Positions 12,636 through 37,896 of a stretch of DNA of 64,000 nucleotides are shown here, one piece after another. The notes under the pieces were generated by a model that worked only from the letters and a program-made list of their open reading frames with translations, made no database searches and was not told where the DNA came from. Positions within the stretch are counted from its first letter, which is position 1; the number at the start of each line of letters is the position of its first letter. The stretch covers positions 193,841 through 257,840 of the forward strand of contig CAZWKL010000001.1 in NCBI GenBank assembly GCA_964633875.1, given 5' to 3'. This DNA is from an uncultured Pseudomonadales bacterium. Lineage in GTDB: Bacteria; Patescibacteriota; Microgenomatia; UBA1400; PJMF01. Made by a program: the position numbers and the translations under genes.

Positions 12636-12660
12636 CAGTGAGGATAATGAGGGGAGATCG

Positions 12661-13767: not shown

Positions 13768-15305
13768 AATTTTTTATGGCTGTAAAAAAATATTATTTAC
13801 CGATTTTGCTTTTATTTTTAGTAGCCTTAACCAGGTTGCCATATCTTATCGACGGAGTTATTCCCTTTGGTTTTGACCACGGCAAAGATTCGCTGGCGAT
13901 CATGAACATGTTGGTCTCCAAACAACTTACTTTTATTGGTCCCTGGACCAGTATTCCGGGTTTGTATTTTGGGCCGGGGTGGTATTACTTGCTGGCCCCC
14001 TTTTTCTTGTTTGGTAATTTTAATCCGGTTTCAGCTGTTTATGCCATGTTTATTTTGGTGATGATTCAAGTGTATTTGGCCTATAAGTATTTTGGTAAAA
14101 TTGCGGCCATTATTATAGCCGGCGCCCCATTCTGGCTGATGATTTCCACCAGCGCTTGGAATCCTTTTCCTATGACTTTACTGACTTTAATTATTCTGAT
14201 TGTTTTCAAAAAGATCAGAGAAGATGGGCTTTTAAATGAAAAACGAGCTTTAGTTTTAAGCTTAGCTGCCGGCTTTGGCTTTCATTTTTCGGCAGCTTAT
14301 GCGATTTTTTATTTTCCTGCCGTTGCTTTAGTATTATTTTATTTAAAACCTAAAACCAATATTAAGGCTGTAGCTGCGGGAGCACTCGGGTTATTATTGC
14401 CTTTTAGCCCCCAACTACTTTTTGAACTCAGAAATAACTTTATCCAAACCAAGTCGGTTATCGATTATTTTAAAGCTGGCGAACCACATACTTTTGGTTT
14501 AGACAAGATTGTTAATGTGATTCGTACTACCTTCAACGATTTAGGCAATGGTTTTTTGCCCGAATTTAGATTACTGTCTAAAAACACTAACCGCTTGATT
14601 AAGCAATTAGTCCTGCTCAGCTTTTTGCCAATTATTTACAGTCAAATTAAGAACAAAAACAAAACTGTTGCCAAAGATTTTAATTATTATTTAGTATTAT
14701 TCATTGCTTTCATACTGATTCCGATGATGGGCTTTTTCTTTCTGCACTTTAATGTTTGGTATGTTTACGCCATGATTCCGGTGATGGTGCTGTTGGTAGC
14801 TAGAATTATCATGATTGCTCCAAAATGGTACCAAATCATTTTTTGTACTTTAATGGTTCTGACTCCTGTTGTTAGTTATCTTGACTATTTGAGCGTTGAT
14901 AAAGCCAAATTACTAACCAATCATTCATTTTTGCCGGTAAAAAAGGAAGCAATCAGGACAATTAGAGAAAAAGCTGGTGCTGAGCCCTTTGCTTCATATC
15001 ATTACTTGCCGGATATTTATGATTTTTCTTACCAGTATTTGTATTTTAGTGATGCTCTCAATGGTAAAGAACTACCGGTTGAGTTTGCTTATATGCCAGA
15101 AGCGGTGCCCTATATAGTGCAAAAAGAATGGTTGTTGACCCAACTGCCTCGCCAACTGAAACAGCCAGACAAAATATTTTTCATAGTTGAAAAGCCAGAA
15201 AATGAAGAGTTTCTTTCTCAGTGGTGGGGTCAACAGCAGTTTGGCGAAATTACAGAAACCATCAAGATTAATGAGACAGTAACTGTTTATGTGGCTACGC
15301 CATAA
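13764..15305 (+). CDS. Polytopic membrane protein, putative GT-C type glycosyltransferase
   Basis: About 11 TM helices, an extracytoplasmic loop with FGFDHGKD near the N-terminus, and a soluble C-terminal domain. Architecture resembles ArnT/GT39, but the motif assignment is tentative. Confidence 0.5.
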   Translation: MKFFMAVKKYYLPILLLFLVALTRLPYLIDGVIPFGFDHGKDSLAIMNMLVSKQLTFIGPWTSIPGLYFGPGWYYLLAPFFLFGNFNPVSAVYAMFILVMIQVYLAYKYFGKIAAIIIAGAPFWLMISTSAWNPFPMTLLTLIILIVFKKIREDGLLNEKRALVLSLAAGFGFHFSAAYAIFYFPAVALVLFYLKPKTNIKAVAAGALGLLLPFSPQLLFELRNNFIQTKSVIDYFKAGEPHTFGLDKIVNVIRTTFNDLGNGFLPEFRLLSKNTNRLIKQLVLLSFLPIIYSQIKNKNKTVAKDFNYYLVLFIAFILIPMMGFFFLHFNVWYVYAMIPVMVLLVARIIMIAPKWYQIIFCTLMVLTPVVSYLDYLSVDKAKLLTNHSFLPVKKEAIRTIREKAGAEPFASYHYLPDIYDFSYQYLYFSDALNGKELPVEFAYMPEAVPYIVQKEWLLTQLPRQLKQPDKIFFIVEKPENEEFLSQWWGQQQFGEITETIKINETVTVYVATP

Positions 15306-15349
15306 AACTAGCATAGTCGAAAATAAATTTTTGCGTTAGGATAAAAGAT

Positions 15350-16408
15350 ATGAAGAAACACGTGCTGTCGGCTCTGATTATTTTTGCTTATTTTTTTCTA
15401 GTCCTAGATGCTTTTAATATACCCAATCCTTTTGATTCGATTTCTATTTTCGACTCCAGACTGATGGCGGTATTAGCGCCGCTACTTGGTTTTGCGTCCA
15501 TCAAATTTTTTGGAACTAAGCCAGATTCTTTTTTTTGGAAAATTCATAATTACTTGTTATTTCCACTTTGGGGAATAGTGGCGGCTATTTTTTTAGGTTT
15601 AGAGCTGTACCATTACAACACTTATGTCCAAGAAATTTTTGGTTTCAATGTTTCCCGTCTTGTTTATCTGCCTCTGGCAATAGGAGCGACGGCTTTATTC
15701 ACCAAGCCTGTTAAGTTCTACCAACAGCACTGGCGAGCGCTAATTTTTATTGCTCCTGGCGTATTGTTTGTGGCGGCGGCCCTAATTTATGTCAGAAATA
15801 ATTTTATTTTTCGCTGGCTGGTGGCAGAAGATTCGTTGGTGGAATACGTCCAGTTTTTACTACTGATGGGTTCAGCGATTCTGGCTGGCGTGAGCGCCAA
15901 ATTTTGGCTGAGGAAAAATAAATTAATTGGCCTTGTTTTGGTGGCAGCAACGCTTTTATTAGCGCTGGTAGCAGCAGAAGAAATATCCTGGGGACAGAGG
16001 CTCTTAAACATTGACACTCCGGAAGAGTTTGCGGCCAGAAATACCCAGGGAGAACTGACTTTACATAATATTAATTCAGTTTTTGGCTATGTTTATCGTG
16101 GCTACATGATCATTGGTTTGGTTGGCAGTTTGCTTTGGACTATTAAAGCTAGACTGGTGAAATTTTTTGGTGGTCAAATTGGAGCTTTACTGGAAGTATT
16201 GACACCGGATTGGTATTTGTTTTTTTACTTTTTTGTTGCTTTTGCTTATAATTTTGATCGGTTTTATGTGCGGCTCAGAAAAGGAGAGACTCTTTGGGAA
16301 GAGCCAATGGAGTTGTTGCTGATTCTGGGAATTTTCTTATTTTTTCTAGTTCAGTATTTTTCACTCACTCGCCTAGCAGCTAGGATACCGGCTCGTAAGG
16401 TGTCGTGA
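15350..16408 (+). CDS. Hypothetical polytopic membrane protein
   Basis: About 9 TM segments with a conserved-looking AEEISWGQRLLN loop. No family recognised. Confidence 0.5.
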   Translation: MKKHVLSALIIFAYFFLVLDAFNIPNPFDSISIFDSRLMAVLAPLLGFASIKFFGTKPDSFFWKIHNYLLFPLWGIVAAIFLGLELYHYNTYVQEIFGFNVSRLVYLPLAIGATALFTKPVKFYQQHWRALIFIAPGVLFVAAALIYVRNNFIFRWLVAEDSLVEYVQFLLLMGSAILAGVSAKFWLRKNKLIGLVLVAATLLLALVAAEEISWGQRLLNIDTPEEFAARNTQGELTLHNINSVFGYVYRGYMIIGLVGSLLWTIKARLVKFFGGQIGALLEVLTPDWYLFFYFFVAFAYNFDRFYVRLRKGETLWEEPMELLLILGIFLFFLVQYFSLTRLAARIPARKVS

Positions 16409-18262: not shown

Positions 18263-19183
18263 ATGAAAATAATCGTGACAGGCGGAGCCGGCTTTTTAGG
18301 CAGGCATTTATGTCGGGCGCTCAAAAATGCCGGACATGAAATTAAGATCATAGACCTCAAAGAAAATCCGGAATTTCCCACTGTGATAGCCGATGTTCGT
18401 GATAGCAAAAAAATGCTTGAGGAAATCAAGGATGCCGAGGTGGTTTTTCATTTGGCCTCGCTGATTGAGGCCGGTGAGTCGGTGAAACAACCAGCCAGGT
18501 ACGCTGATTACAATATTATGGGCACGATTGCCGTGCTTGAGGCCATGAGGCAGAACAATATCAAGACTTTTATTTTTTCTTCAAGCGCGGCCATTTACGG
18601 TGAACCACTTCAAGTGCCGATTAAAGAAGACGATCGCACCCTGCCTATCAGCCCTTACGGGATGACCAAGCTAGCGATGGAGGGCTTGCTTTCTTCATAC
18701 TGTCAGGCCTATGATTTTACCGGTGTGGCTTTGCGCTACTTCAATCTGTATGGCCCGGAGGAACATCATCAGCCTGAAACGCATGCTATTCCTCGGTTTA
18801 TTAAACAAGTTCACGAGGGTAGTGAAGTAACGGTTTGGGGTGGTGGTGAACATCAGCGTGATTATGTTTATATTGATGATATTGTGGCAGCGCATTTGCA
18901 GGCTTTAAATTATGCGACCGCTCCGGAAAATCAGGCAAAATATCACTATTTCAATCTTTCGACGGAAAGAGCGGCTTCTGTCTTGGATATTGTGAAAATT
19001 GTTAGTGATGTTGTGAGTAAAGAAGCCAAGGTCAAGCATTTTCCTGAGAGGCCAGGGGATCCACTGGTGTTGGTGGCAGATGCCAGCAAAGCGAAGGAGC
19101 AATTGGGTTGGCAGGCAAAAGTGCAGCTGGAAGAAGGTTTGAAGAAAACAACGGAGTATTTTTTGAAGCTTTGGGAAAAGTAA
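18263..19183 (+). CDS. NAD-dependent sugar-nucleotide epimerase/dehydratase (GalE-like SDR)
   Basis: IIVTGGAGFLG Rossmann motif with catalytic YGMTKLAME (YxxxK). Confidence 0.85.
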   Translation: MKIIVTGGAGFLGRHLCRALKNAGHEIKIIDLKENPEFPTVIADVRDSKKMLEEIKDAEVVFHLASLIEAGESVKQPARYADYNIMGTIAVLEAMRQNNIKTFIFSSSAAIYGEPLQVPIKEDDRTLPISPYGMTKLAMEGLLSSYCQAYDFTGVALRYFNLYGPEEHHQPETHAIPRFIKQVHEGSEVTVWGGGEHQRDYVYIDDIVAAHLQALNYATAPENQAKYHYFNLSTERAASVLDIVKIVSDVVSKEAKVKHFPERPGDPLVLVADASKAKEQLGWQAKVQLEEGLKKTTEYFLKLWEK

Positions 19184-19184
19184 C

Positions 19185-19490
19185 TTACTGTCGCGGCTTG
19201 AACTTGATTTCCAAATTGCTGTTGAGCGCCTCCGCAAGTTTGGTTAAGAAATCAAGCGAAGGACTGGTATTACCGGCTTCAATTCTTGAGATCAAAGATT
19301 GACTGGTGCCAATTTTCTTGGCAAGTTGAGCTTGGGTGAGGTTGAGTTGATATCTTGCCCTAATTAAGTTGTTGACAACTTTTAGCCTGGGCTGTAATTT
19401 CTCATACTCCTTTTTAAATTCGGGATCTTTTAGCAACTCTTTTTTAACTTCAGAGTAAGGTATGGTTCTTGCTTTTAGTTTGTTTTTCAT
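19185..19490 (-). CDS. higA: XRE-family HTH antitoxin (HigA-like)
   Basis: LTQAQLAKKIGTSQSLISRIEAGNTSPSLDFLTKLAEAL is a canonical Cro/C1 helix-turn-helix. It lies directly downstream of the Gp49-like toxin on the same strand. Confidence 0.75.
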   Translation of the reverse strand: MKNKLKARTIPYSEVKKELLKDPEFKKEYEKLQPRLKVVNNLIRARYQLNLTQAQLAKKIGTSQSLISRIEAGNTSPSLDFLTKLAEALNSNLEIKFKPRQ

Positions 19491-19521
19491 AATGTTCTAA
19501 AATGTTTGATGCATCAGCATG

Positions 19522-19851
19522 TTACAGTATTTCATTTCTTCTCGCAATCGCCGTTTTGATCTCCCGAAACGGCACTTTATTGGTTTTCTTTTTGAATGCG
19601 TGCAGTAAAACAAAGACACCACCGATTATAGTATATAAAATTCTCACTTGAATTTTACCGGTAATTCTAAGTTCATATATATTTGAATCTAGTTTTTTGC
19701 TAAATTGTGGTGATATAAATGGACCATTTTCTTCCAATGCATCGATCGCAGAAGCAATTTTTACCCCTGTCTGTGGTTGCTGATTTTTTATAAAGATTTC
19801 AACCGGGTTGTCGCCCCTGGTGTTTTTATAAAATAATACTTCCCAACTCAT
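19522..19851 (-). CDS. higB: Type II toxin, RelE/ParE superfamily (Gp49/HigB-like)
   Basis: 109 aa, MSWEVLFYKNTRGDNPVEIF...NIYELRI...ILY, typical of the phage Gp49-like HigB toxin. Toxin-first order, 31 bp upstream of the XRE gene. Confidence 0.7.
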   Translation of the reverse strand: MSWEVLFYKNTRGDNPVEIFIKNQQPQTGVKIASAIDALEENGPFISPQFSKKLDSNIYELRITGKIQVRILYTIIGGVFVLLHAFKKKTNKVPFREIKTAIARRNEIL

Positions 19852-21855: not shown

Positions 21856-23613
21856 ATGCTTCAGATTATTCGAAAACTCAGCGATATTCTTCCCAGACGA
21901 GATAAGATCAGGATAGTGATTCTTTTTTTTATGATGCTTGGCGCTGGCATTCTTCAGTTGGTGGGCCTCGGAATGATTCTGGCTTTTATCTCCATTCTTG
22001 CTGATGCAGAAACTATTCTTAACCATGAACAGCTTGGCACCCTTTGGCAACTCCTCAACATTCAAGATTTTTATGGTTTACTTATTTGGGGATCGGCGGT
22101 TTTAGCTCTCATTTTTCTGATCAAAAGTCTTTACCTCATTTTTTACAACTACATACTGTCTAGATTTGCTCATAATAAGTTTCGCAATATTGCTACTGAA
22201 TTATTTGCCAGTTATATGTTTTTGCCATACAGCTTTCACTTGCAAAACAACTCAGCCACCTTGATTCGCAACGTGACTGTTGAAACCAACATGTTGCTTA
22301 AGTTTCTGCTTATCCCCATGCTCTCGATTCTGATGGAATCAGTGATGATTATCACTGTGCTGATTTTTCTGTTCATTGTTGAGCCAACGGTAACAATCAT
22401 GGCAGCTCTCTCGATTGGCCTAGCGGGCTTTTTGCTGATAAAACTGCTGAAAAAATATGAACAAGCCTATGGCAGAAAGGCTCAAAAAAGTCGAGGCGAG
22501 GTGATTCAGTACGTCAACGAAGGCTTGGGTGGTATTAAGGAAATTAAAGTACTTAATCGGCAGCAATACTTCATTAACAAACTTAGGTCCGCGATGGAAG
22601 TGCTTAAACAAGCCGAGACTTACAACGAAACTTCCAAAGAAAGCTTTCGGCCGGCAATAGAGTTGATTGCGGTGGGTGGGATGGTGACAATGGCGCTGAT
22701 TATGGCCATACAAGGCAGAGGAGCGGAAGATATTATTCCTGTGTTGACGCTATTTGGTGTGGGCGCTTTTCAATTGCTGCCTTCTTTTGCCAAAATCACC
22801 AACCAATACAGCAAGCTGGATTATCATAGTCACACCATCATCCCCATTCATGAGGATTTGATGAAAGTATCAAGGAAAGTTAGAACAAATTTAAAGAAGG
22901 CCAGTTTCGAAACCCTGCCTCTCAATCAAGCAATTAAGTTAGATAAGGTTGGTTTTGCTTACTCTGATGATAGTAAGCCTGTTCTTAAAAATATTTCACT
23001 AAGTATTCCTAAGGGGGCGGCTGTTGGGATAGTGGGTAAATCTGGTGCGGGTAAGACCACTCTGGTGGATCTGATTTTGGGATTATTTGAGCCGACAAAT
23101 GGGGAAATTTTGGTAGATGGAAAAGATATCAAAGAAAACCTGATTGCTTGGCAGAGCAATGTCGGCTATATTCCGCAAATTATCTATTTGGCCGATGATA
23201 CAGTACGCAAAAATATTGCCTTTGGCTTGAACGATGAGGAAATTGATGAAGAGAAACTAATAAAAGCAGCGGAAATGGCTCAGCTAATCGAGGTAATCGA
23301 TGAGTTACCAAAGGGTTTTGAGACACTAATCGGAGAGAATGGACTGAGGCTGAGTGGTGGCCAGAGGCAGAGAATAGGCATTGCTAGGGCTTTGTATCAC
23401 GACCCAGATGTACTGGTGATGGATGAAGCCACATCTGCTCTGGACAATGAGACTGAGCAGTATATTATCAAATCTATTGAACGACTGAGGGGCGAGCGAA
23501 CAATTATTATTATTGCTCATAGGCTGACCACGGTGCAAAATTGCGATCAGCTCTATTTACTTGAAGACGGAAAGGTGTTAAATTCGGGTACATATAAGGA
23601 GTTGTATGGGTAA
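21856..23613 (+). CDS. ABC exporter, fused permease-ATPase (MsbA/PglK-like lipid-linked-glycan flippase candidate)
   Basis: 6-TM N-domain, Walker A GKSGAGKTT, signature LSGGQRQRIGIARAL, Walker B VLVMDEATSALD, H-loop IIIAHRL. Confidence 0.85.
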   Translation: MLQIIRKLSDILPRRDKIRIVILFFMMLGAGILQLVGLGMILAFISILADAETILNHEQLGTLWQLLNIQDFYGLLIWGSAVLALIFLIKSLYLIFYNYILSRFAHNKFRNIATELFASYMFLPYSFHLQNNSATLIRNVTVETNMLLKFLLIPMLSILMESVMIITVLIFLFIVEPTVTIMAALSIGLAGFLLIKLLKKYEQAYGRKAQKSRGEVIQYVNEGLGGIKEIKVLNRQQYFINKLRSAMEVLKQAETYNETSKESFRPAIELIAVGGMVTMALIMAIQGRGAEDIIPVLTLFGVGAFQLLPSFAKITNQYSKLDYHSHTIIPIHEDLMKVSRKVRTNLKKASFETLPLNQAIKLDKVGFAYSDDSKPVLKNISLSIPKGAAVGIVGKSGAGKTTLVDLILGLFEPTNGEILVDGKDIKENLIAWQSNVGYIPQIIYLADDTVRKNIAFGLNDEEIDEEKLIKAAEMAQLIEVIDELPKGFETLIGENGLRLSGGQRQRIGIARALYHDPDVLVMDEATSALDNETEQYIIKSIERLRGERTIIIIAHRLTTVQNCDQLYLLEDGKVLNSGTYKELYG

Positions 23614-24727
23614 AAAAATTCAAAAACCAATCTATGTCACTCAACCAGCTTTACCACCCCTTAAAGAATTTAATAACTACCTAAAAACAATCTGGAACAA
23701 CAAAATTCTCACTAACAACGGACCGTTTCATGAGCAGTTTGAAGAGGAGTTAGCCGAATATTTGGGTGTAAAATATATCTCTCTTTTCTCTAATGGCACT
23801 CTGGCACTGATCACAGCCCTTCAGGCGCTCAGAATAACCGGCGAAGTCATTACTACCCCCTTTAGTTTTGTAGCCACCACTCACTCACTTTGGTGGAATA
23901 ACATCCAACCAGTCTTTGCAGACATTGAGCCAGATACATTTAATCTGGATCCAGAAAAAGTAGAGGCGGCAATCACTCCAAAAACTACTGCGATCATGCC
24001 GGTGCATGTTTATGGCAATCCCTGCAATGTACAAGAGCTACAAAATATTGCCGATAAATATAACTTAAAAATCATTTATGATGCTGCTCATGCCTTTGGG
24101 GTAGAAGTTGATGGTGAATCAATACTTAACTTTGGCAATTTATCTGTACTCAGCTTTCATGCCACCAAAGTATTTAATACCTTTGAGGGTGGAGCTATCA
24201 TCTCCCCAGACAAGAAAACTAAGCAGCACATCGATGATCTTAAAAACTTTGGCTTTAGGGGAGAAACTACTGTAGTAGCACCAGGCATAAATGCCAAGAT
24301 GAATGAAATGCAGGCTGCTATGGGTATTTTGCAGCTAAAGTATGTTGATAAATATATTGCTGAGCGAAAAAAAATAGCTGATTTATATAGAGAAAAGCTG
24401 AGTGATGTTGAGGGAATTAGTTATTTAGAGGACATTGAAAGTGTAAAACACAATTATGCATATTTTCCAATTCTTATAGACAAAGAAAAATATGGGAAAA
24501 GTAGAGATGAGGTATACGAAAAGCTTAAAGAGCATGGAATACACGGGCGAAGATACTTTTATCCGCTTATAAGTCAATTTCCAACGTATAAAGGGTTGGA
24601 TTCTGCTGATGTTGATAACTTGCCTGTGGCCGAGAGGATTACTAATCAAGTTTTATGTTTACCGATTTATCCAAACTTAGAAAAAAGTACCATTCAGAAT
24701 GTAAGTAAACTAATAGGAGATCAATAA
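23606..24727 (+). CDS. DegT/DnrJ/EryC1/StrS-family PLP-dependent sugar aminotransferase
   Basis: Typical N-terminus (...LPPLKEFNNYLKTIWNNKILTNNGPFHEQFEEELAEYLGVKY..) and PLP-lysine motif SFHATKVF. Confidence 0.85.
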   Translation: MGKKIQKPIYVTQPALPPLKEFNNYLKTIWNNKILTNNGPFHEQFEEELAEYLGVKYISLFSNGTLALITALQALRITGEVITTPFSFVATTHSLWWNNIQPVFADIEPDTFNLDPEKVEAAITPKTTAIMPVHVYGNPCNVQELQNIADKYNLKIIYDAAHAFGVEVDGESILNFGNLSVLSFHATKVFNTFEGGAIISPDKKTKQHIDDLKNFGFRGETTVVAPGINAKMNEMQAAMGILQLKYVDKYIAERKKIADLYREKLSDVEGISYLEDIESVKHNYAYFPILIDKEKYGKSRDEVYEKLKEHGIHGRRYFYPLISQFPTYKGLDSADVDNLPVAERITNQVLCLPIYPNLEKSTIQNVSKLIGDQ

Positions 24728-25248
24728 TGAAAGGTGATAGGATTCACTTGAGAATAATTAATAAGTCAGATTTAGATCAGATGATCGCTTGGCTTAATAC
24801 AGATGAAATAAGCCAAGTAATGGGATATTTGCCGATTTTTACGATCGAAAACCAAACACAATGGTATGAAGAAATGATATCTACTGATAACACATATGTT
24901 TTTGCAATATGTATAAATGATAGTAACAAACACATAGGAAATGTTGGTTTGGGTAATATAGACTACATCAACAGAAATGCTATGCTAAATATATTTATAG
25001 CGGACAAAGAAATGCAGGGGAAGGGATATGGCACAGAAACTATACGTCTAATTTTAAAGTTTGCGTTTAACAGATTAAATCTTCATAGAATATATTTGCA
25101 AACTTCAGAAAGGTTTACGGCTGCGTTGAAAATGTATGAAAAAATTGGATTTATAAAAGAGGGCATTAAAAGAGAGCATTATTACAGAAACGGCGACTAT
25201 GAAGACAAACTTCTTTTTTCTATATTAAGAGATGAATTTATCCAATAA
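24727..25248 (+). CDS. GNAT-family N-acetyltransferase (candidate amino-sugar N-acetyltransferase, WecD-like role)
   Basis: Acetyl-CoA motif MQGKGYGTETIRLILKFAF. The start overlaps the DegT stop. Confidence 0.8.
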   Translation: MKGDRIHLRIINKSDLDQMIAWLNTDEISQVMGYLPIFTIENQTQWYEEMISTDNTYVFAICINDSNKHIGNVGLGNIDYINRNAMLNIFIADKEMQGKGYGTETIRLILKFAFNRLNLHRIYLQTSERFTAALKMYEKIGFIKEGIKREHYYRNGDYEDKLLFSILRDEFIQ

Positions 25249-25934
25249 TGAAAACAGATAATAAAACTCGCCAGTCTCAAATTAATCATTATAAAAAGCT
25301 TTTTGACAAATATAAAGGTACTCCAATGGCTGTAAGTTCTGAGTCAGAGGCTCATAAAAGTTTACGGTTTACTAAAATTTCACAAATTTTCCTTAACGAA
25401 AATAAAATTCAGGTGCATGATGTTGGCATGGGGCTCGGTGATTATTATGAATATTTGAAAAAAACTTTTCCTAATAAAATAATTGAATATTCTGGTTCTG
25501 AAATAGTAGAAGAATACTTTAGTGAAACTAAAACAAAATTTCCAGAATCAGAATTTTACTTAAGAGATATTGCTGAGAAACCAGGTGAAGAAAAATATGA
25601 TTACGTAATATTAAGTGGTGTTTTCCATCAAAGAAGAGATTCTACAATTGGGGAGTGGGAAAATTTTGCTCAAAACATCATTAGAAATTCTTTTAAAATG
25701 TGCAATAAAGGAATTGCTTTTAATTTTATTAGCCCGTTTGTTGATTTTTATCAAACCGAAGTATATTACTGCAATCTTCCAAAACTAATTAATTTTATTA
25801 ATGATGACTTAAGTAGGTTTTTTACACTAAATCACAACTACCCACTTTTTGAGTTTACAATGTTTGTTTATAAAGAAGAATATATTAAAAGCTTATACAA
25901 AGAAAAAGAATTCCAAAAATATTTTAAAATATGA
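25248..25934 (+). CDS. Putative class I SAM-dependent methyltransferase
   Basis: Motif I-like VHDVGMGLGDY, an acidic residue after beta2 (EYSGSE), and motif II-like DYVILSGVFH. Weak call. Confidence 0.45.
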   Translation: MKTDNKTRQSQINHYKKLFDKYKGTPMAVSSESEAHKSLRFTKISQIFLNENKIQVHDVGMGLGDYYEYLKKTFPNKIIEYSGSEIVEEYFSETKTKFPESEFYLRDIAEKPGEEKYDYVILSGVFHQRRDSTIGEWENFAQNIIRNSFKMCNKGIAFNFISPFVDFYQTEVYYCNLPKLINFINDDLSRFFTLNHNYPLFEFTMFVYKEEYIKSLYKEKEFQKYFKI

Positions 25935-26944
25935 ACATCCTACTCACATCTTCAGGCAGAAGAAGTTATATTGTTAAATACTTTCAAGAACTTCTTAAAG
26001 ACAAAGGAGTAGTACACGCTGCAAACTCAGAATGGTCACCAGCATTACAAGTAGCTGACAAGGCAGTAACTACGCCTCTAATATATGATTCTACATACAT
26101 AGATTTTCTTCTTGATTATTCACTTGAACACGATATCAACGCCATTATTTCATTGTTTGATATTGATTTACCAATACTCGCTCAATCAAAAAAACGATTT
26201 GAGAGACATGGAATCCAAGTTGTCGTCTCAGATTATAATGTTACACAAATTTGCAATGATAAATGGAAAGCCTTTGAGTTTTTTAAACAAAATAATATAA
26301 ATACTCCTAATACATATATTTCAATCTCCGAAGCTGTAAAGGATCTAAAAAATGAAAATATTTCATATCCCCTGATAATTAAACCAAGATGGGGAATGGG
26401 ATCAATTGGCATTTATACTGCAGAAAATAAAAATGAGTTAGAAATTTTATATAAAAAGGTCAAAAATGAAATCCTTAAAACTTACTTGAAATTTGAATCT
26501 AAAGAGGATCTAAACAATGCAGTATTAATTCAAGAAAAACTCGATGGGCAAGAGTATGGCTTGGATATAGTTAATGACCTCAATAAAAATTATGTGACTA
26601 CTTTTGTGAAGCGAAAATCAGCTATGCGGTCAGGTGAAACAGACCGAGCAGTTACAGAAGACAATCCATCATTAGAAAAATTTGGGGAGAAGATATCTCT
26701 AGCTTTGCAGCATATTGGTAATTTAGATACAGATTGCTTCGTTGTGGATAATAAGCCACTTATACTCGAAATGAACTGTAGGTTTGGCGGTGGATATCCG
26801 TTTTCTCACTTAGCAGGCGCAAATATTCCTCAAGCAATAATCCATTGGTTGAATGGTGAACAACCTCCCGAAGAAGTATTTAACTTGACTTATGGGGTTG
26901 AAGCCATAAAAGATATAAATATGATTTTGTTAGAAAAGCGGTAA
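25931..26944 (+). CDS. ATP-grasp domain amidoligase (CPS-locus type)
   Basis: ILLTSSGRR N-terminus, ATP-binding PLIIKPRWGMGSIGI, catalytic EMNCRFGGGYP (E.N.R motif). Confidence 0.8.
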   Translation: MNILLTSSGRRSYIVKYFQELLKDKGVVHAANSEWSPALQVADKAVTTPLIYDSTYIDFLLDYSLEHDINAIISLFDIDLPILAQSKKRFERHGIQVVVSDYNVTQICNDKWKAFEFFKQNNINTPNTYISISEAVKDLKNENISYPLIIKPRWGMGSIGIYTAENKNELEILYKKVKNEILKTYLKFESKEDLNNAVLIQEKLDGQEYGLDIVNDLNKNYVTTFVKRKSAMRSGETDRAVTEDNPSLEKFGEKISLALQHIGNLDTDCFVVDNKPLILEMNCRFGGGYPFSHLAGANIPQAIIHWLNGEQPPEEVFNLTYGVEAIKDINMILLEKR

Positions 26945-26947
26945 ATA

Positions 26948-28006
26948 ATGTTTAAATTAAGTCAAAAAGAAATAATGGAAAACTGGGGTGATAATACAGA
27001 GCCCTTGGTTAGTGTTGGCTGTATCACTTATAATCATGAAGACTATATTGAAGAAGCAATTCAAAGCTTCTTGATGCAAAAAACAAATTTTCCATTTGAA
27101 GTAATTATTCACGATGATGCATCTACAGATGATACGGCTAAGATAATAAAAAGATATGCAAAAAAGTATCCAAATATTATTAAGCCAATTTTTCAAATAG
27201 AAAATCAGTATTCACAAATTAATGGGCCTATTTATCCCAGATTTGTATATCCAAAATGTAATGGGGAATACATTGCACTTTGTGAAGGTGATGATTACTG
27301 GACTGATCCATTTAAACTTCAGAAACAAGTTGACATATTGGAAAAACACTCGGGATGTAGCTGGAGTTTTCATCCTGCTCAAATTGTCAATCACATTAAA
27401 CCTACTGGTAAAATTTGCAGGATTACCAATAATAATAAAGTTTTTGGAGAGCAGGATATATTTAAAATTAATAAAACTCGGTTTTCGCCTACAGCATCGA
27501 TTCTATTTCGAACCCGACATATTAAACAACTTCCAAATTGGGTACTTAACGCACCAGTTGGCGATTTACCCTTAAAGTTATATTTAACAACTAAAGGTAA
27601 AGCATATTATATAAATGAAGCAATGTCTGCTTATCGTATAAATGTTGCCGTTTCTTGGAATTCAGACTATAAAAGTAACCTCAATAAGCGAAAAAAGCTT
27701 CATCTTGGCTTAATAAAAATGCTACATTCATTTAATATTTACACTAAGTACAAATATTATGAACAAATCATAAACAAACAAATTGAATATTTATTTAAAA
27801 TCGTAAAATACTACCCATTAAAACTAAGATTAAAGTATTTATTCCTTATTATTAATAATACTAAAGTACTAAATATAGTAAAAATCAATACTATAATTCG
27901 AATACTAATATTAACATTATTACCACAAAGTAGTAAGTTGCTTATTAGAATAAAAGAAATAACCACTGCAATTACTCATGAATGGAGAAGTTATGCAAAC
28001 ACTTAG
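26948..28006 (+). CDS. Glycosyltransferase family 2
   Basis: VSVGCITYNHEDYIEEAIQSF...EVIIHDDASTDDT...CEGDDYW. Confidence 0.75.
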   Translation: MFKLSQKEIMENWGDNTEPLVSVGCITYNHEDYIEEAIQSFLMQKTNFPFEVIIHDDASTDDTAKIIKRYAKKYPNIIKPIFQIENQYSQINGPIYPRFVYPKCNGEYIALCEGDDYWTDPFKLQKQVDILEKHSGCSWSFHPAQIVNHIKPTGKICRITNNNKVFGEQDIFKINKTRFSPTASILFRTRHIKQLPNWVLNAPVGDLPLKLYLTTKGKAYYINEAMSAYRINVAVSWNSDYKSNLNKRKKLHLGLIKMLHSFNIYTKYKYYEQIINKQIEYLFKIVKYYPLKLRLKYLFLIINNTKVLNIVKINTIIRILILTLLPQSSKLLIRIKEITTAITHEWRSYANT

Positions 28007-28832
28007 ATTTATTATTAGAAGAAATTCACTATTAAGATATTTGATATTTGATATGTTTTTAAAATACCAAAAACAACTATTACAAAAGATAAATGCTACT
28101 GGAAATACTCATCAATGTTATATTTGTAAAAATACTTTTAATGGTTTTACAAAATATAGAGGAGGTACTAAAAACAAAAGTGAATTTTCTAGATTGATGC
28201 AAACAGTGGGTAGTAATATAGATCATTTTGGTTGCATGTATTGTGGATGCCATGACAGAGCTAGACACATATTTATGTATTTTGACAAATTAAATTTTTG
28301 GGAAGAAATGACTGATGCCAATATACTTCATTTTGCACCAGAAATTAATCTTCAAAATAAAATAGAATTATTAAATCCTAATAGGTATATTAAAGGAGAT
28401 CTTTATCCTTATAAGGATGATCAAATAAAGATTGATATTACTAATATTCCATTTGAAAATGACTATTTTGACCTAGTTATTTCAAATCATGTTCTAGAAC
28501 ATATTCCAAATTATATTAAAGCATTGAAAGAAGTCCATAGAGTGCTTAAGCCGGGTGGAATTGCAATATTACAAACTCCTTACTCCAATGTCCTGAAGTA
28601 TAATTTTGAACTTTCAACTATTAAGACCGATTATTTAAAACTTAAATATTATGGTCAAGAAGATCATGTTAGATATTTTAGTGGCAAGCAATTGTTCAAA
28701 AGTATTGAAAAAGTGGGATTTAAATCTCATATCAAGAAACATCAAGATTTATTTAACAAAGGATCTGCGCACAAGTTTGGGGTTAATATGAATGAAGATC
28801 TTTTAATGTTTGAAAAAGTAAATAATTTATGA
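27978..28832 (+). CDS. Class I SAM-dependent methyltransferase (Methyltransf_11-like) with N-terminal Cys4 zinc-ribbon-like segment
   Basis: C..C (QCYICKN) ... C..C (GCMYCGC), then LVISNHVLEHIPN...LKPGGIAIL. Confidence 0.75.
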   Translation: MNGEVMQTLRFIIRRNSLLRYLIFDMFLKYQKQLLQKINATGNTHQCYICKNTFNGFTKYRGGTKNKSEFSRLMQTVGSNIDHFGCMYCGCHDRARHIFMYFDKLNFWEEMTDANILHFAPEINLQNKIELLNPNRYIKGDLYPYKDDQIKIDITNIPFENDYFDLVISNHVLEHIPNYIKALKEVHRVLKPGGIAILQTPYSNVLKYNFELSTIKTDYLKLKYYGQEDHVRYFSGKQLFKSIEKVGFKSHIKKHQDLFNKGSAHKFGVNMNEDLLMFEKVNNL

Positions 28833-29848
28833 AAAATAAAGCTGCAATTATAATCGTAAATTGGAACGGCTTAAAGTTTTTGGATGATTGTTTAACTGCT
28901 GTATTTGATCAAATATATAAAAACTTTGATGTCTATTTTGTAGACAATGGATCTAAAGATAGTTCAGTAAAATTTGTAGAATCTAAGTTTCCTAAGGTTG
29001 AGATTATTAAACTAGACAAGAATTATGGATTTGCTGAAGCAAATAATATTGGTATTAGACAAGCATTGTATGATAAAGATATCAAGTACCTTGTTTTTTT
29101 AAATAATGATACAAAGGTTGAGCCAGGTTGGTTGGCATCACTTGTAAATACTGCTGAAATGTCAAAAAATATAGGAATGGTTTCAAGTAAAGCATTATTT
29201 CCTAACGGAACAATACAAAATGCGGGGCTTAGTTTTGAAAAGGGGCTTGTCTCAGGAAAAAATGGTGGTTTGTCCTTAGGATACGGACTTCCAAAAAACC
29301 ATCCTTCCTTTGCAAGTGATATTGAAATCTTTGCACCAGGTGGAGTAGCATGTTTGTACAAACGGGAGGTAATAGAGGAGGTGGGCTTATTTGATGAAGA
29401 CTTTTTTGCCTATGCAGAAGATTATGATCTAGGATTCAGGGCACGATTGATGGGTTGGAAATCTTATTTGTCTGCAAAAGCACAACTAGTTCATTATCAT
29501 TCTCAAACTGGTGGTGATAACTCTTTATTCAAACTTTTTCATACAACAAGAAACATAATCTTTGTAGCTTATAAGAATTTACCAATAAAATTTTTTCTAG
29601 ATTTTTTTCTAAATTATCTAAAAAAAAGATATCTAGGAATTAAATTCAATCATACTAAAACTATAAAGACTCTAAAAAATAATAACAATTTCAGCTATTT
29701 TAGATTCGTGAGTAAATTAATTATTTCAATGGTCTACTACCTTCCAAAAATGACTTTGAAAAGAAATAAAATTCAAAGAGGAAGAAGAATTAAAAAAAAT
29801 AACATACTCGAGTGGTATAGTAGATTTTCAAGAAATAATTATGAATGA
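28829..29848 (+). CDS. Glycosyltransferase family 2 (WbbL-like)
   Basis: AAIIIVNWNGLKFL...YFVDNGSKD...NNDT...YAEDYDLGFR. Confidence 0.8.
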   Translation: MKNKAAIIIVNWNGLKFLDDCLTAVFDQIYKNFDVYFVDNGSKDSSVKFVESKFPKVEIIKLDKNYGFAEANNIGIRQALYDKDIKYLVFLNNDTKVEPGWLASLVNTAEMSKNIGMVSSKALFPNGTIQNAGLSFEKGLVSGKNGGLSLGYGLPKNHPSFASDIEIFAPGGVACLYKREVIEEVGLFDEDFFAYAEDYDLGFRARLMGWKSYLSAKAQLVHYHSQTGGDNSLFKLFHTTRNIIFVAYKNLPIKFFLDFFLNYLKKRYLGIKFNHTKTIKTLKNNNNFSYFRFVSKLIISMVYYLPKMTLKRNKIQRGRRIKKNNILEWYSRFSRNNYE

Positions 29849-29863
29849 AAATTTGACGAATAA

Positions 29864-30970
29864 TTAATTTAAATAAATTTGAGACAAATTCTTTAAGTAT
29901 AGCTCTTTATTATATTTTAAAATACTATTTCTCGCATTATTAGTTATTTCATTGTACACCCGATTATTTGATAACAAATATATGATTTTATTTGCTAAAT
30001 CTAGTGAATCATTATTGTTGAAATACAGTCCATTTTCACCATGTATTATAACTTCATCTAATCCAATACCATTGGAGGAAACAACAGGTAATTCCATTGC
30101 CAAGGCTTCTAATTGTGACATCGGGTGTCCTTCCCAATGGCTTGGTATTATGAATAAATCCAATATTGAATAAAAGTTAATCATATTTTTTTGATATCCA
30201 AGGAAGGTAACATATTCAGTCAGAGAGTTTGTTCGTATATATTGAAGCAACTCATTCTCATCTTGCCCAGTTCCGGCAATAATAAATCTAATATTACTTC
30301 GACTTATTTTAGTTTTGACAATTTTTGCAGCTTCAAGAAAAACTTTCCAGCCCTTTCTTTGTATAATTCGTCCAGCATAACCAATGATGAAATCATTTTT
30401 ATTTAAATTGTAAGATTTTTTTAATTTATCTTTGTCAAGTCTTAGCTGTTTTCTATCAAATTTATTCAAATCTACAAAATTGTGTAAAACGGTAATTTTT
30501 GATTTCATCAAGCCAGCATTAAAAATGAGCCTTTCCTCTAAAGCATTTGATACTGCTATATACCTGTATACAAATTGTTTTGATAATCTAATTAGAAAAT
30601 TGTAATATATACTCTCTTTTAAAATTGCACCGTGCTCATGGTAAATTAATGTAATTTTTGGAATAAAGAATAATTTAATAATAATCCCAATGAATAATGA
30701 TCTTAATAGATGACAATGTAAAATGTCAATTTTTTTATTTCTAATTATACTTACTAATCTAAATATTGGGATAATCGAAAATTTTGATTGTGAGTTATAT
30801 CGAAAAAAATTTTTGCTATCAATTTTATAATCATTATTTGTACTCCTTAATGAATACCCAAAATGGATAAACTTTTGATTCTTATCTTCACAAATTGTTT
30901 TTACAATTGTTTGTGCTCCACCAAGACCAATATGATCAATTATATGTAAAATTGTATAATTTTGTTTCAT
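29864..30970 (-). CDS. Glycosyltransferase family 4
   Basis: ILHIIDHIGLGGAQT N-terminus and C-terminal PSHWEGHPMSQLEALAMELPVV. Confidence 0.8.
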   Translation of the reverse strand: MKQNYTILHIIDHIGLGGAQTIVKTICEDKNQKFIHFGYSLRSTNNDYKIDSKNFFRYNSQSKFSIIPIFRLVSIIRNKKIDILHCHLLRSLFIGIIIKLFFIPKITLIYHEHGAILKESIYYNFLIRLSKQFVYRYIAVSNALEERLIFNAGLMKSKITVLHNFVDLNKFDRKQLRLDKDKLKKSYNLNKNDFIIGYAGRIIQRKGWKVFLEAAKIVKTKISRSNIRFIIAGTGQDENELLQYIRTNSLTEYVTFLGYQKNMINFYSILDLFIIPSHWEGHPMSQLEALAMELPVVSSNGIGLDEVIIHGENGLYFNNNDSLDLANKIIYLLSNNRVYNEITNNARNSILKYNKELYLKNLSQIYLN

Positions 30971-31623
30971 ATATCTAAGTTCAATCTCGCTATTACATTA
31001 AAGTTTGTTTTTAGAGGAACTGGCAAAATATCAGGATTGAAAACTTTCAATGCAGATACACCAAATACTCCGAATTGACTCCGAAGCTTGTCTACAAAAT
31101 ACTTGTTGACTAATGGAACTGAATGAAATTCAGTAGTAAAACTGTTATTTATGAGTTTATTTTTTAAACCCCAATAGGTATATACACTTGGGTGATATTT
31201 TTTATATTTAGTAAAACTTTTTTCCTTAATTATTTCAAATGGAACATTGGTAAGTTTATTTGGGGTACTAAAAATATACTGTCCATCTTCTTTTAAGACT
31301 CTTTTCACCTCTTTTAAATGCTGGTTGGTGTTAGGTATATGCTCCAACACATCGAAACTCATCACAATATCGAAACTATTATTCTTGAAAGGCAACTTTT
31401 TATCATTCAATTTTAATAATTTTATTCCAAATTCATCTTGCGAAAATTGTATGTAATTATCATTTACTTCTGTACCTGTAATATCATAGCCTTCATTTCT
31501 TAAAGTTTTGACCATATAACCTGTGCCAGAGCCAACTTCAAGGATTTTAGCCTTTTTGTTGAGCACTCCTGTTTTTTCCGAAAAAAACAAATTAGATTTA
31601 AAATTACCGCGGTTAATTTTCAT
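30967..31623 (-). CDS. Class I SAM-dependent methyltransferase
   Basis: KILEVGSGTGYM (motif I), DIVMSFDVLEHIPN (motif II region). Confidence 0.8.
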   Translation of the reverse strand: MKINRGNFKSNLFFSEKTGVLNKKAKILEVGSGTGYMVKTLRNEGYDITGTEVNDNYIQFSQDEFGIKLLKLNDKKLPFKNNSFDIVMSFDVLEHIPNTNQHLKEVKRVLKEDGQYIFSTPNKLTNVPFEIIKEKSFTKYKKYHPSVYTYWGLKNKLINNSFTTEFHSVPLVNKYFVDKLRSQFGVFGVSALKVFNPDILPVPLKTNFNVIARLNLDI

Positions 31624-32749
31624 AATATTTAATATAATGCGTTGAAATATTTCCCCATTTCATGTTTTCTGAGATTTGTTTGCTTTGCTTACCCATATCG
31701 CTTCTGTGTTGTGGATTATCAATGATTTTTGTTAGTGCAGCTGCAATTGCTTTACTGTTTCGTTTTTCGACCGCTATTCCATTCCCATCCAAAATCTCCT
31801 CAGTCCCACCAACATCAGTCAAAATAAGCGGTAACCCACAAGCTGCAGCCTCCAACACAGCATTACTCATCCCCTCAGCCAAAGAGGGTAGACACATAAC
31901 ATGACACTTAGGCAATGCTGTAGCAAGCTCATCGTGACTTAGTCTACCAGTAAACTCTACTGCATCTGTGATGCCTAGGGCGTTCACTTGCTGCTCTAGC
32001 TTTACTTTTAACTCACCCTCACCGATAAGCAGTAGCTTGCTTTTTGGGTGCTCTTCATGAAACGATGCAAACCCCTCAACCAGGTGCTCAAGTCCTTTTT
32101 TGGGACCCATTACCGTGCCACCAGCAGTAACGGTAAAGACCTTAAACTTGTCCTTTTCCGGCACTGGCTTGAATTTTTCGGTATCAACACCGTTAGAAAT
32201 AATCTCAATTTTCCGATCCAGCGTTTGTTTGGCCAAATCAGCCAGCCACTGGCTGTTGGCAACCACCGCCTTGGCGTATTTCCAAGATAATTTAGCCAGG
32301 GGTTTATACAAGTAATAATACCAACCATACTTCTGATTATATCCAGGCACATCAACACCTCTGAGCGAAATAATGTAAGGCGCTTTGTGTTTGAAAAGCA
32401 ACCCAGGAAGAGCGCTGGGGTAGCCAAAATAATGAGCCAGCTTATAATTATTTTTCCTCAACAGCGAAAAAATCTTTAAGGTTGAGAAAAAAGTAAACCT
32501 CAACATTTCCCAGGGTGTTTGCTTTTGATACTTTTCGGGCGGCTTTTTGCCAATGGGAACTCTATAAAGGGTGATATTTTTGCTAAATTTTTCCGTTGTC
32601 CAGGCATTATTGATTGAGCTGGTAATCACATCAATGGCCAAGTTTTCCTCTTTGGCAAACTCTCTTAGTAAATGGCTGGCAGCCGTAGCCACTCCGCCAC
32701 CAAGGGGAGGGAGTTCGTAGACAACGAAAAGAATGCGAGTGGCGCTCAT
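31613..32749 (-). CDS. Glycosyltransferase family 4
   Basis: ILFVVYELPPLGGGVATA N-terminus and C-terminal PSLAEGMSNAVLEAAACGLPLI. Confidence 0.85.
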   Translation of the reverse strand: MSATRILFVVYELPPLGGGVATAASHLLREFAKEENLAIDVITSSINNAWTTEKFSKNITLYRVPIGKKPPEKYQKQTPWEMLRFTFFSTLKIFSLLRKNNYKLAHYFGYPSALPGLLFKHKAPYIISLRGVDVPGYNQKYGWYYYLYKPLAKLSWKYAKAVVANSQWLADLAKQTLDRKIEIISNGVDTEKFKPVPEKDKFKVFTVTAGGTVMGPKKGLEHLVEGFASFHEEHPKSKLLLIGEGELKVKLEQQVNALGITDAVEFTGRLSHDELATALPKCHVMCLPSLAEGMSNAVLEAAACGLPLILTDVGGTEEILDGNGIAVEKRNSKAIAAALTKIIDNPQHRSDMGKQSKQISENMKWGNISTHYIKYYEN

Positions 32750-37311: not shown

Positions 37312-37896
37312 CTACGGAGCCCCAGGAGCTAGGGTTGGTGTGGGTTGAGGTGAGATGTTAGGTAAAGCATAAAGCGGCTCACGATGTTCCGGCAATACTT
37401 CAAAAGGATAAACGTCAGGAATAAGCAACTCAATGTCGTATTGCAAAGTTCCTCTCATATTGTTTCTCATTTCGATTAACTTCGCCCCCACAAAAGGATC
37501 TCTTCCGGGACCATAGAACTTTTGAGCTAATTCAAAAAGAGTATCTCCCTTTTCGACAGGATATTTTGCACCCACAGGCCAAGTAGCTGGGTCTGATTTA
37601 ACTATTTCTATAATCAATTTTTCACTCATACTACCATGACCCGTCAATTCACCGAGACCCACTCCTGCTGTGTTCATTTCTTGACCAATCGTTGATTGAA
37701 ATTTAGATTCGTTAGAAGGTTTTAAAATTGGACCGCACCCCGTCATAGCAAGTAAAAATAGTAGTTCGAGGGATTGAGTTATTCGTCTCTGTTTTGGCCG
37801 TTCTCTTTCCTCAACTCCTTGAGTTTTACCAGCTCTATTCAATAACTCTCTGAGTTTATTAACATTTGGATTTTTAGTAAGTGCTTCTTCATTCAT
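37312..37896 (-). CDS. LysM-domain lipoprotein (peptidoglycan-binding), proline-rich C-terminus
   Basis: Lipobox-like LLFLLAMTGC. LysM core VEKGDTLFELAQKFYG. The N-terminal charged extension suggests the true start may be further downstream. Confidence 0.55.
   Translation of the reverse strand: MNEEALTKNPNVNKLRELLNRAGKTQGVEERERPKQRRITQSLELLFLLAMTGCGPILKPSNESKFQSTIGQEMNTAGVGLGELTGHGSMSEKLIIEIVKSDPATWPVGAKYPVEKGDTLFELAQKFYGPGRDPFVGAKLIEMRNNMRGTLQYDIELLIPDVYPFEVLPEHREPLYALPNISPQPTPTLAPGAP

Follow-up and report, generated by a model that had tools for sequence, protein, structure and literature searches.

Introduction

In this article, I will discuss a block of AT-rich DNA that lies inside a very large surface-glycan locus, within a window of 64,000 nucleotides (contig CAZWKL010000001.1 of assembly GCA_964633875.1, positions 193,841 to 257,840; coordinates below are those of the window unless another locus is named), which is in turn part of a 202-kb metagenome contig. 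About 45 of the 59 open reading frames (ORFs) in the window are glycan-related, and these encode RmlB (the RmlB-like ORF at 2450-3469), RmlC and RmlD, a LytR-CpsA-Psr ligase, Wzx-like flippases, a Wzy_C protein, a Bac_transf initiating transferase, five GT-C/PMT_2-type enzymes and about 25 glycosyltransferases of families GT2 and GT4, interleaved with the housekeeping genes for TrmD, RuvCAB, RecO, a class II aminoacyl-tRNA synthetase and MraZ. Among named sequences, RuvB has its best matches mostly in Ca. Pacebacteria, Ca. Woesebacteria and "Patescibacteria group" (70-73% identity), and the ABC transporter beside the block has them in Ca. Kerfeldbacteria and Nomurabacteria (about 50%), all of the NCBI phylum Minisyncoccota; going by these names, the uncultured host is a bacterium of the Patescibacteria. 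As Patescibacteria genomes are typically only about 1 Mb in size, a 64-kb stretch in which about three quarters of the ORFs serve glycan synthesis would mean that a strikingly large share is devoted to the cell surface.

An earlier reading of the window (the original prediction) had described the block as a glycan-decoration cassette acquired horizontally from a low-GC donor (GC, guanine plus cytosine). Here I will argue that it is probably a slot at which gene sets are exchanged, similar to the serotype-determining regions of other surface polysaccharides.

A low-GC block within the glycan locus

The genes of the block and of its two anchors are listed in Table 1 together with the short names used below, and the identities first proposed (DegT, GNAT, a methyltransferase-like protein, ATP-grasp, GT2, a zinc-ribbon methyltransferase and GT2, followed by a convergent GT4, methyltransferase and GT4) all hold by Pfam. 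Their coupling through overlaps of 1-4 bp stood for the tight packing and for most junctions (overlaps of 1, 1, 4 and 4 bp), and failed for one 3-bp gap, one overlap of 14-29 bp that depends on the start chosen, and the 11-bp overlap at the right edge; GT4a and GT2b converge with 15 bp between them. Scans for promoters and terminators gave results at chance level, which are uninformative in AT-rich DNA, and Rfam had no match in the window.

Table 1. Genes of the AT-rich block, its anchors and a nearby toxin-antitoxin pair. Identities are at the protein level, to the sister genome unless another locus is named; GC3 is GC at third codon positions.
Name	Positions (strand)	Assignment	GC	Identity	Remarks
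ABC	21856..23613 (+)	Fused ABC transporter, PglK/MsbA-like lipid-linked-glycan flippase; Pfam ABC_membrane and ABC_tran	0.416	70%	Left anchor
DegT	23606..24727 (+)	DegT/DesI/VioA-like sugar 4-aminotransferase dependent on pyridoxal phosphate (PLP); PF01041, E=4.5e-110	0.374 (GC3 0.329)	79-80%; 77% to L045; <=72% to loci outside the Candidate Phyla Radiation (CPR)	
GNAT	24727..25248 (+)	N-acetyltransferase, RimJ/PseH/SpeG-like; PF13302, E=3.9e-21	0.310	34%, to a GNAT in a different position	1-bp overlap with DegT
MT-like	25248..25934 (+)	Class I S-adenosylmethionine (SAM)-dependent methyltransferase of an unnamed family	0.274	No counterpart	Motif I VHDVGMGLGD
ATP-grasp	25931..26944 (+)	Predicted carboxylate-amine ligase; NF009404, Pfam PylC-like_N and ATP-grasp_3	0.334	No counterpart	
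GT2a	26948..28006 (+)	GT2 glycosyltransferase; PF00535	0.290	56%; 57% to L041; <=48% to other phyla	Usual downstream partner of this ATP-grasp
MTzn	27978..28832 (+)	SAM methyltransferase; Methyltransf_23/11, E about 1e-14, residues 144-249	0.268	64%; 34% to other phyla	Gene callers' start 27993
GT2b	28829..29848 (+)	GT2 glycosyltransferase; PF00535, E=6.4e-23	0.301	62%; <30% elsewhere	Ends the + strand operon
GT4a	29864..30970 (-)	GT4 glycosyltransferase; Glycos_transf_1, E=1.3e-39	0.262	37%, to a GT4 in the equivalent place	GC minimum of the window
MTc	30967..31623 (-)	Class I SAM methyltransferase; Methyltransf_11, E=3.3e-20	0.298	No orthologue; another methyltransferase and a RIO1-like kinase there	Final AT-rich gene
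GT4b	31613..32749 (-)	GT4 glycosyltransferase; Glycos_transf_1, E=1.8e-33	0.430	67%	Outside the AT-rich block; right anchor
Antitoxin	19185..19490 (-)	HTH_3			
Toxin	19522..19851 (-)	Gp49/DUF891			

Homologues of the ABC transporter carry the JGI name PglK. DegT certainly belongs to PF01041, whereas a substrate specificity of the DesI/VioA type is a less than certain prediction: its best NCBIfam profile is DesI TIGR04427, at 325 bits against a cutoff of 650, PseC scores 238 against 423, the VioA cutoff is not reached, and the best match in the PDB is 2po3 (DesI; E=3.3e-72). GNAT falls under the cutoff of the PseH profile TIGR03585 (63.8, cutoff 93.1). As a single sequence, MT-like has only sub-threshold matches in Pfam; a profile of 46 members of its family, for which 2526 representative homologues were found, matches 66 methyltransferases in the PDB (best 8.7e-9), and 37 of the 46 match Methyltransf_25 at E<=1e-3. 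Judged by this family profile and its glycine-rich motif I, the protein is a genuine class I methyltransferase. The ATP-grasp protein passes NF009404 ("carbamoyl phosphate synthase-like protein"; 366.2 bits, cutoff 316, over residues 1-336), and its PDB matches are 2pn1 ("Carbamoylphosphate synthase large subunit", 1.7e-41) and 3vot, an L-amino-acid ligase (3e-12). MTzn has in its translation an N-terminal, zinc-ribbon-like CxxC...CxxC arrangement (C47-x2-C50 and C86-x2-C89).

The GC profile, taken in 1-kb windows, drops from 0.40-0.50 to 0.27-0.35 over 24001-32000, and two-segment maximum likelihood places a gradual left change point at 24324, within the 3' third of the DegT gene, and a sharp right one at 31681, at the MTc/GT4b junction just past the MTc start, in essential agreement with the limits of 24400 and 31650 first proposed (the AT-rich 60-mer then cited as an example occupies 27841-27900). 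For the eight ORFs of 24727-31623, hereafter the cassette, compared with the other 50 ORFs of the window as background, GC per ORF is 0.262-0.334 (0.292 for the cassette) against 0.443 (standard deviation 0.031), giving z-scores of -3.5 to -5.9 and placing the cassette clearly under its flanks, and GC3 is 0.179-0.299 against 0.464 (standard deviation 0.056; Mann-Whitney p = 1e-9), while GC1 and GC2, at first and second codon positions, are 0.374 vs 0.508 and 0.272 vs 0.357. The block is therefore compositionally foreign at all three codon positions. The K/N/I/Y-rich character noticed in the encoded proteins is likewise borne out (K/N/I/Y/F content of 0.34-0.43 in cassette ORFs, 0.21-0.35 in background ORFs), codon fractions within synonymous families correlate with those of the remaining window at r = 0.71 (split-half control 0.99), and the tetranucleotide correlation with the background is 0.70-0.73 in the block and about 0.94-0.96 elsewhere. 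Flanks of higher GC, a shifted codon usage and a shifted tetranucleotide profile were all part of what the original prediction expected, and each of these measures shows a clear shift in the block.

A hypervariable slot in related genomes

The relatives compared here are related at the species level, with RuvB 78-92% identical where measured, and include the sister genome GCA_964515115.1 (locus L037), in which RuvB is 92% identical, the 12 glycan genes downstream of RuvB are 78-95% identical and nearly equal in length, identity is 79-90% for the glycan genes that lie upstream of the cassette, and core and other glycan genes altogether span 78-95% protein identity. At the position of GNAT, MT-like and ATP-grasp, the sister genome instead has a WbqC-family gene (PF08889), a 320-aa unknown and a GNAT, and its cassette as a whole reads WbqC, 320-aa unknown, GNAT, GT2, methyltransferase, GT2, RIO1-like, methyltransferase and GT4, at a GC of 0.28-0.34 between flanks of 0.40-0.47. 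Three further alleles, found in more distant relatives, occupy the same place downstream of ABC: in L045/L046, DegT, a different ATP-grasp, a methyltransferase-like gene, a GT2 and two GT4 genes precede GT4b (GC 0.33-0.36); in L040, there is no DegT, and small ORFs, a methyltransferase and a GT4 precede GT4b (GC 0.25-0.37); and in L038/L039, a reverse-strand GT2 and another gene are found (GC 0.28-0.29). The ATP-grasp and methyltransferase-like genes of L045 were considered as orthologues of those in the window and rejected on comparison.

Together with the window itself, these make five alleles with partly non-homologous gene sets, and those in the four related lineages are all AT-rich (GC 0.25-0.37, flanks 0.40-0.50). 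L037, L040 and L045 share the anchors on both sides, with ABC and DegT (in L040 without DegT) to the left and GT4b to the right: orthologues of ABC are 63-71% identical in the relatives and always lie upstream of the variable region, and orthologues of GT4b, at 65-67% identity, close it in the same three loci. The stretch between the ABC flippase and GT4b is thus a hypervariable slot, AT-rich in all of the alleles observed. A scan of metagenome contigs with the ABC transporter returned only relatives of <=34% identity and no comparative loci.

The sister genome also departs from the window outside the main slot (L037 3822-5021, 5041-6116 and 7811-9054): it has an extra 399-aa Mannosyl_trans2/PMT_2 gene after the GT4, its orthologue of the epimerase gene at window 18263-19183 seems to be split into fragments, and a GNAT with a small ORF/PIN-domain pair is inserted before the GT2 that precedes the ABC gene. 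These differences indicate that the locus has several smaller indel hot spots.

Mosaic origins and the ATP-grasp module

The genes of the cassette do not share one history. DegT, GT2a, MTzn and GT2b are each nearest to versions in related Patescibacteria and not to those of other phyla. The ATP-grasp family, by comparison, counts >6900 homologues at E<=1e-10, and relatives of 56-65% identity come from Balneolota, Bacillota, Atribacterota, Omnitrophota, Spirochaetota, Bacteroidota, Fusobacterium and the metagenome-assembled genome of an Asgard archaeon. The nearest ATP-grasp (85% identical) lies on L041, a 3-kb AT-rich contig, where the adjoining GT2 is only 57% identical and has GT2a of the window as its best match, and where the GNAT is of another type and a gene for MT-like is lacking; an ATP-grasp at 85% beside a GT2 at 57% means that neighbouring genes have different histories.

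Over 19 genome loci from many phyla, the neighbourhood of the ATP-grasp gene is conserved, with a DegT homologue <=2.5 kb upstream in 13 of the 19 (Bacillota, Bacteroidota, Planctomycetota, Cloacimonadota, Providencia), a GNAT just upstream in nearly all, a PALP-family PLP enzyme between GNAT and ATP-grasp in eight and a homologue of GT2a directly downstream in seven. Loci with a GT2a homologue right after the ATP-grasp are L005, L006, L008, L009, L014, L016, L020, L041 and L043. The best collinear match to the run DegT-GNAT-MT-like-ATP-grasp-GT2 is L005, a 7-kb contig binned as "Bacillota bacterium" (DegT 67%, GNAT 55%, MT-like 55-74% to a frameshifted homologue, ATP-grasp 63%, GT2 45%), which is short, of low coverage and unreliably binned. 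In other hosts, too, the ATP-grasp gene is usually AT-richer than its surroundings (e.g., 0.39 in the 0.535 locus L007).

In other phyla, a small GNAT and a PALP enzyme of roughly 300 aa usually precede the ATP-grasp (L008, L009, L012-L015, L017, L023, L043), and from its GGGNKxRKL motif I take this enzyme to be ACC-deaminase/D-cysteine-desulfhydrase-like. In the window and in L005, the unnamed methyltransferase stands where this enzyme would be, and in L020 a formyltransferase does. Fusions exist as well, both of GNAT with ATP-grasp (486-492 aa) and of GNAT with PALP (L008, 8577-10004). On L043, a metagenome contig with an ATP-grasp 67% identical to that of the window, a DDE_Tnp_1 transposase fragment (2480-3151, GC 0.50) sits inside a homologous DegT-MT-GNAT-PALP-ATP-grasp-GT2 module, and no other mobility gene was seen close to a copy of the module.

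Taken together, the allele of the window would consist of three parts, namely DegT with the trio GT2-methyltransferase-GT2, which would be strongly diverged forms of genes that the sister genome has as well; the sub-block of GNAT, methyltransferase and ATP-grasp, which would belong to a DegT-GNAT-x-ATP-grasp-GT2 module found in many phyla and usually AT-rich there; and the GT4-methyltransferase pair, a putative third component for which there is no close relative.

How the block may be exchanged

It could be objected that a metagenomic mis-assembly simply joined a piece from some AT-rich organism to a contig of Patescibacteria, given that the source is a metagenome contig (k141_1866340) and that the Logan assembly of SRR13001968 holds the cassette on a 7.65-kb contig of its own (L002). 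However, this independent contig covers 24523-32173 with 3 mismatches and reaches about 490 bp into GT4b with its normal GC, the same neighbourhood is found on five NCBI, JGI, ENA and Logan contigs of up to 294 kb, ORF overlaps span both junctions (1 bp at DegT/GNAT, 11 bp at MTc/GT4b), and the sister genome has an AT-rich cassette between the same anchors. Assembly chimerism is unlikely on these grounds, and the artefact, largely refuted, deserves next to no credence. As a separate observation, L002 ends just inside DegT (~24523) and inside GT4b (~32173), its 3 mismatches are clustered at 32138-32143, and short pieces of DegT (125 aa) and GT4b (43 aa) turn up repeatedly at contig ends in ENA, JGI and Logan data; these edges and pieces could stem from strains that live side by side with different cassettes, or from coverage that varies with GC.

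The original prediction went further than a compositional anomaly and proposed horizontal acquisition from a low-GC donor, with the best hits of the cassette proteins expected in a phylum other than that of the flanking genes, and in its strict form the whole cassette would have arrived in a single transfer. All three codon positions are shifted, as expected of genes that evolved in an AT-rich genome, none of the named best matches of the ATP-grasp comes from Patescibacteria (they are Balneolota, Bacillota, Atribacterota, Omnitrophota, Spirochaetota, Fusobacterium, Asgard archaeon) while the flanking RuvB and ABC match Patescibacteria, and five genes in a row are collinear with L005, binned as Bacillota. 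Yet matches to sequences from outside the CPR are only 45-74% identical, which leaves no recent donor, L005 is the unreliable contig described above, and DegT, GT2a, MTzn and GT2b contradict the expected pattern in being nearest to the alleles of related Patescibacteria; moreover, the L041 comparison (85% vs 57% for adjacent genes) implies that the block was not inherited as one unit, the other slot alleles are all AT-rich too, and mobility machinery is missing. The part of the proposal that stands is the foreign, exchanged gene content; a single donor from another phylum is not supported, and one transfer of the entire cassette is an unlikely account.

More improbable again, to my mind, is that a native region turned AT-rich in place, whether because mutation was AT-biased where selection was relaxed or expression low, or because GC-biased gene conversion was missing, non-homologous alleles being unable to recombine. 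Several observations do speak for it: slot alleles are AT-rich in four related lineages and the surrounding conserved glycan genes are not; GT2a, MTzn and GT2b, which are shared with the sister genome, have a GC of 0.27-0.34 in both and give no sign of amelioration; the ATP-grasp family is AT-rich relative to its neighbours in unrelated hosts; and the low GC of such genes has been said by Reeves and colleagues to need explanation (PMC3715488). But drift alone explains neither the non-homologous replacements between the sisters (ATP-grasp and MT-like vs WbqC and the unknown; MTc vs kinase and methyltransferase) nor the divergence of the shared cassette genes (56-64% identity vs 78-95% for the flanks). 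AT drift in place may well complement exchange at the slot by keeping the pool AT-rich.

The reading that I favor, and consider probable, is that the block is a swappable, serotype-like slot of the glycan locus, that its AT-rich gene sets are mosaic and that they are swapped by way of the conserved flanks. Alleles would be exchanged by homologous recombination in these flanks and not by a mobile element, and the low GC would reflect a pool of exchangeable cassette genes, as in O-antigen and capsule loci, with no single donor identified. What the evidence favors is a standing pool from which AT-rich cassettes recombine into one fixed slot, for the most part between related lineages of the CPR. 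By Pfam, no integrase, transposase or other mobility family occurs among the ORFs of 12556-44228, no tRNA or tmRNA was found in the 64 kb, and a search for flanking repeats returned only short, chance-level AT-rich pairs, none bracketing the boundaries, so that the block fails the features of a classical mobile-element genomic island for which it was tested (mobility gene, tRNA site, direct repeats). What it does have are the testable features of a surface-polysaccharide variable region, which are a position inside a conserved glycan locus, gene sets that differ and low GC.

Several points weigh against this view. A sliding scan of nucleotide identity to two relatives over ABC and DegT found no breakpoint, the identity being flat at 0.6-0.8. 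The diversity was seen between species-level relatives only and does not support switching within a population. Host placement comes from the best-match names of two proteins, RuvB and ABC, and a few RuvB matches are labelled proteobacterial. On the side of the product, an RmlA-type thymidylyltransferase was not identified among the ORFs of the window, where only a ManC-like NTP transferase (56073-57176) was found, and no member of NF009404 has a substrate-indicating name in the libraries searched, which leaves its chemistry assigned by association.

Predicted chemistry of the cassette

If the genes act as their families suggest, RmlB would supply dTDP-4-keto-6-deoxyglucose, from which DegT would make a 4-amino-4,6-dideoxyhexose. 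DegT has its best relatives in DesI (2po3, with the NCBIfam score under its cutoff), and the window also encodes RmlB; the likeliest intermediate is a dTDP-4-amino-4,6-dideoxyhexose. Membership of NF009404, with an L-amino-acid ligase as the only informative structural relative, suggests ATP-dependent amide formation, and the ATP-grasp enzyme would most simply form an amide between the 4-amine of the sugar and a small carboxylate or amino acid; that its neighbours are near-constantly DegT, GNAT and GT2 points to a sugar nucleotide as the substrate rather than a free amino acid. GNAT would acetylate a free amine, the methyltransferases (MT-like, MTzn, MTc) would add methyl groups, and GT2a, GT2b and GT4a would add the modified sugar, along with those next to it, to a lipid-linked glycan that the adjacent PglK-like ABC flippase would export. 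The product is likely an N-acylated or aminoacylated, methylated side group of the 4-amino-6-deoxyhexose type, and the chemistry of the original prediction (an N-acylated amino sugar, methylation and an amide bond made by the ATP-grasp) is reasonable to infer from these neighbours.

The WbqC family is named after a gene of an E. coli O-antigen cluster, and its presence at the equivalent step in the sister genome would fit alternative N-acyl decorations of the same amino sugar; a literature search found no relevant paper linking ATP-grasp enzymes to Qui4N or WbqC. A route like that of Arn, with GT2a transferring the sugar to polyprenyl phosphate for use by a GT-C enzyme, was also considered and not adopted, the best family matches of GT2a being of the TuaG/EpsE/PglI type and not ArnC or GtrB.

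Other features of the locus

The glycan genes of the window form at least three clusters, which are parted by TrmD, by RuvCAB, and by RecO, the class II aminoacyl-tRNA synthetase and MraZ. The RecO encoded here is short, at 180 aa, and the initiating transferase is followed by a DUF4012 protein (57835-59835). A HigB/HigA-like toxin-antitoxin pair (19185-19851, GC 0.35-0.39) lies on the minus strand inside a plus-strand glycan operon and is found in the same place in the sister genome, at 61-72% identity compared with 82-90% for its neighbours.

A milder GC dip (0.37-0.40) covers 12556-16408, where three ORFs without a Pfam match have 7-8 hydrophobic segments each and are probably Wzy-like or GT-C-like membrane proteins. 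This region was considered as a second variable cassette and rejected, since its products are polytopic membrane proteins, two of which have counterparts of 79-86% identity in the sister genome; such conservation indicates a composition effect of membrane proteins. Between a TIG-domain protein and a Wzx-like flippase, the minus-strand ORF at 37312-37896 (194 aa) has no Pfam match and an unusual profile over the codon positions, with a GC1 of 0.53, GC2 of 0.41 and GC3 of 0.29.

Comparison with known systems

The surface structures of Patescibacteria, through which these bacteria presumably attach to their host cells and are exposed to phages, are almost unstudied, and a published study of horizontal gene transfer in these bacteria has nothing on glycan loci. 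I would tentatively propose, while holding it at somewhat less than even confidence, that ultra-small Patescibacteria keep a switchable, serotype-like slot fed by an AT-rich pool that is shared beyond the phylum, including a very widespread NF009404 module (DegT, GNAT, a PLP enzyme or methyltransferase, ATP-grasp and GT2) for making N-acylated or aminoacylated 4-amino-6-deoxy sugars. If this is true, switching at the slot could govern host range or phage escape in host-attached Patescibacteria. Apart from NF009404, the finding is an expected feature of a glycan locus and no surprise; the ATP-grasp family itself is large, and its conserved neighbours suggest a role in amino-sugar N-acylation, which makes it a concrete biochemical target.

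With respect to the amino sugar, VioA and VioB belong to the N-acyl pathway of dTDP-D-Qui4N (viosamine) in E. coli O7 and Shigella dysenteriae type 7, as cited from Wang et al. (2007) in PMC7685785. The cassette resembles this pathway, and DesI of Streptomyces venezuelae (PDB 2po3), in that a DegT-family 4-aminotransferase is directly followed by N-acylating enzymes with RmlB in the window, and the sister allele has a WbqC-family gene at this position; it differs in missing the DesI, VioA and PseC cutoffs and in having GNAT, a methyltransferase and an ATP-grasp as the acylating set in place of the VioB acetyltransferase. The ATP-grasp L-amino-acid ligases (BL00235, PDB 3vot) belong to the same fold family and make amide bonds through acyl-phosphates, as would be expected here. 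The names attached to NF009404 and 2pn1, by contrast, suggest no role in sugar metabolism, whereas the neighbours in the loci considered here are DegT, GNAT, GT2 and often a PALP-family PLP enzyme.

Patescibacteria are assumed to have neither an outer membrane nor lipopolysaccharide, and the LytR-CpsA-Psr and GT-C (PMT_2) enzymes of the locus make a wall polymer or protein the probable acceptor of the glycan. The closest parallels to the slot are the O-antigen and capsule loci. In Salmonella enterica, the glycosyltransferase, wzx and wzy genes of the O-antigen have a GC of 28-37% in a genome of 51-52%, and the shared rml genes beside them show a gradient of GC and divergence toward the specific genes; the accepted inference is transfer from lower-GC sources, with the especially low GC of wzx/wzy described as something that "needs explanation" (PMC3715488). 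As in the galactose-initiated O-antigen set of that species (PMC3715488), the block presented here is made up of glycosyltransferase and sugar-modification genes about 15 GC points under the genome. As in O-antigen and capsule loci generally, conserved flanks would serve as recombination anchors, non-homologous sets occupy the same locus and mobility genes are missing, and the gradient runs inside a shared gene of the sugar pathway next to the specific genes, which is rml in those loci and DegT and ABC in this one. The differences are that a PglK-like ABC flippase and a GT4 take the part of galF and gnd as anchors, that genes for LytR-CpsA-Psr and several GT-C (PMT_2) enzymes are interspersed in the locus, and that the diversity lies between species and not yet between strains. 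The architecture itself has long been known from O-antigen and capsule loci; what is new are the Patescibacteria host and the particular anchors, and low-GC, cassette-swapping regions in surface-polysaccharide loci would thereby occur in Patescibacteria as well.

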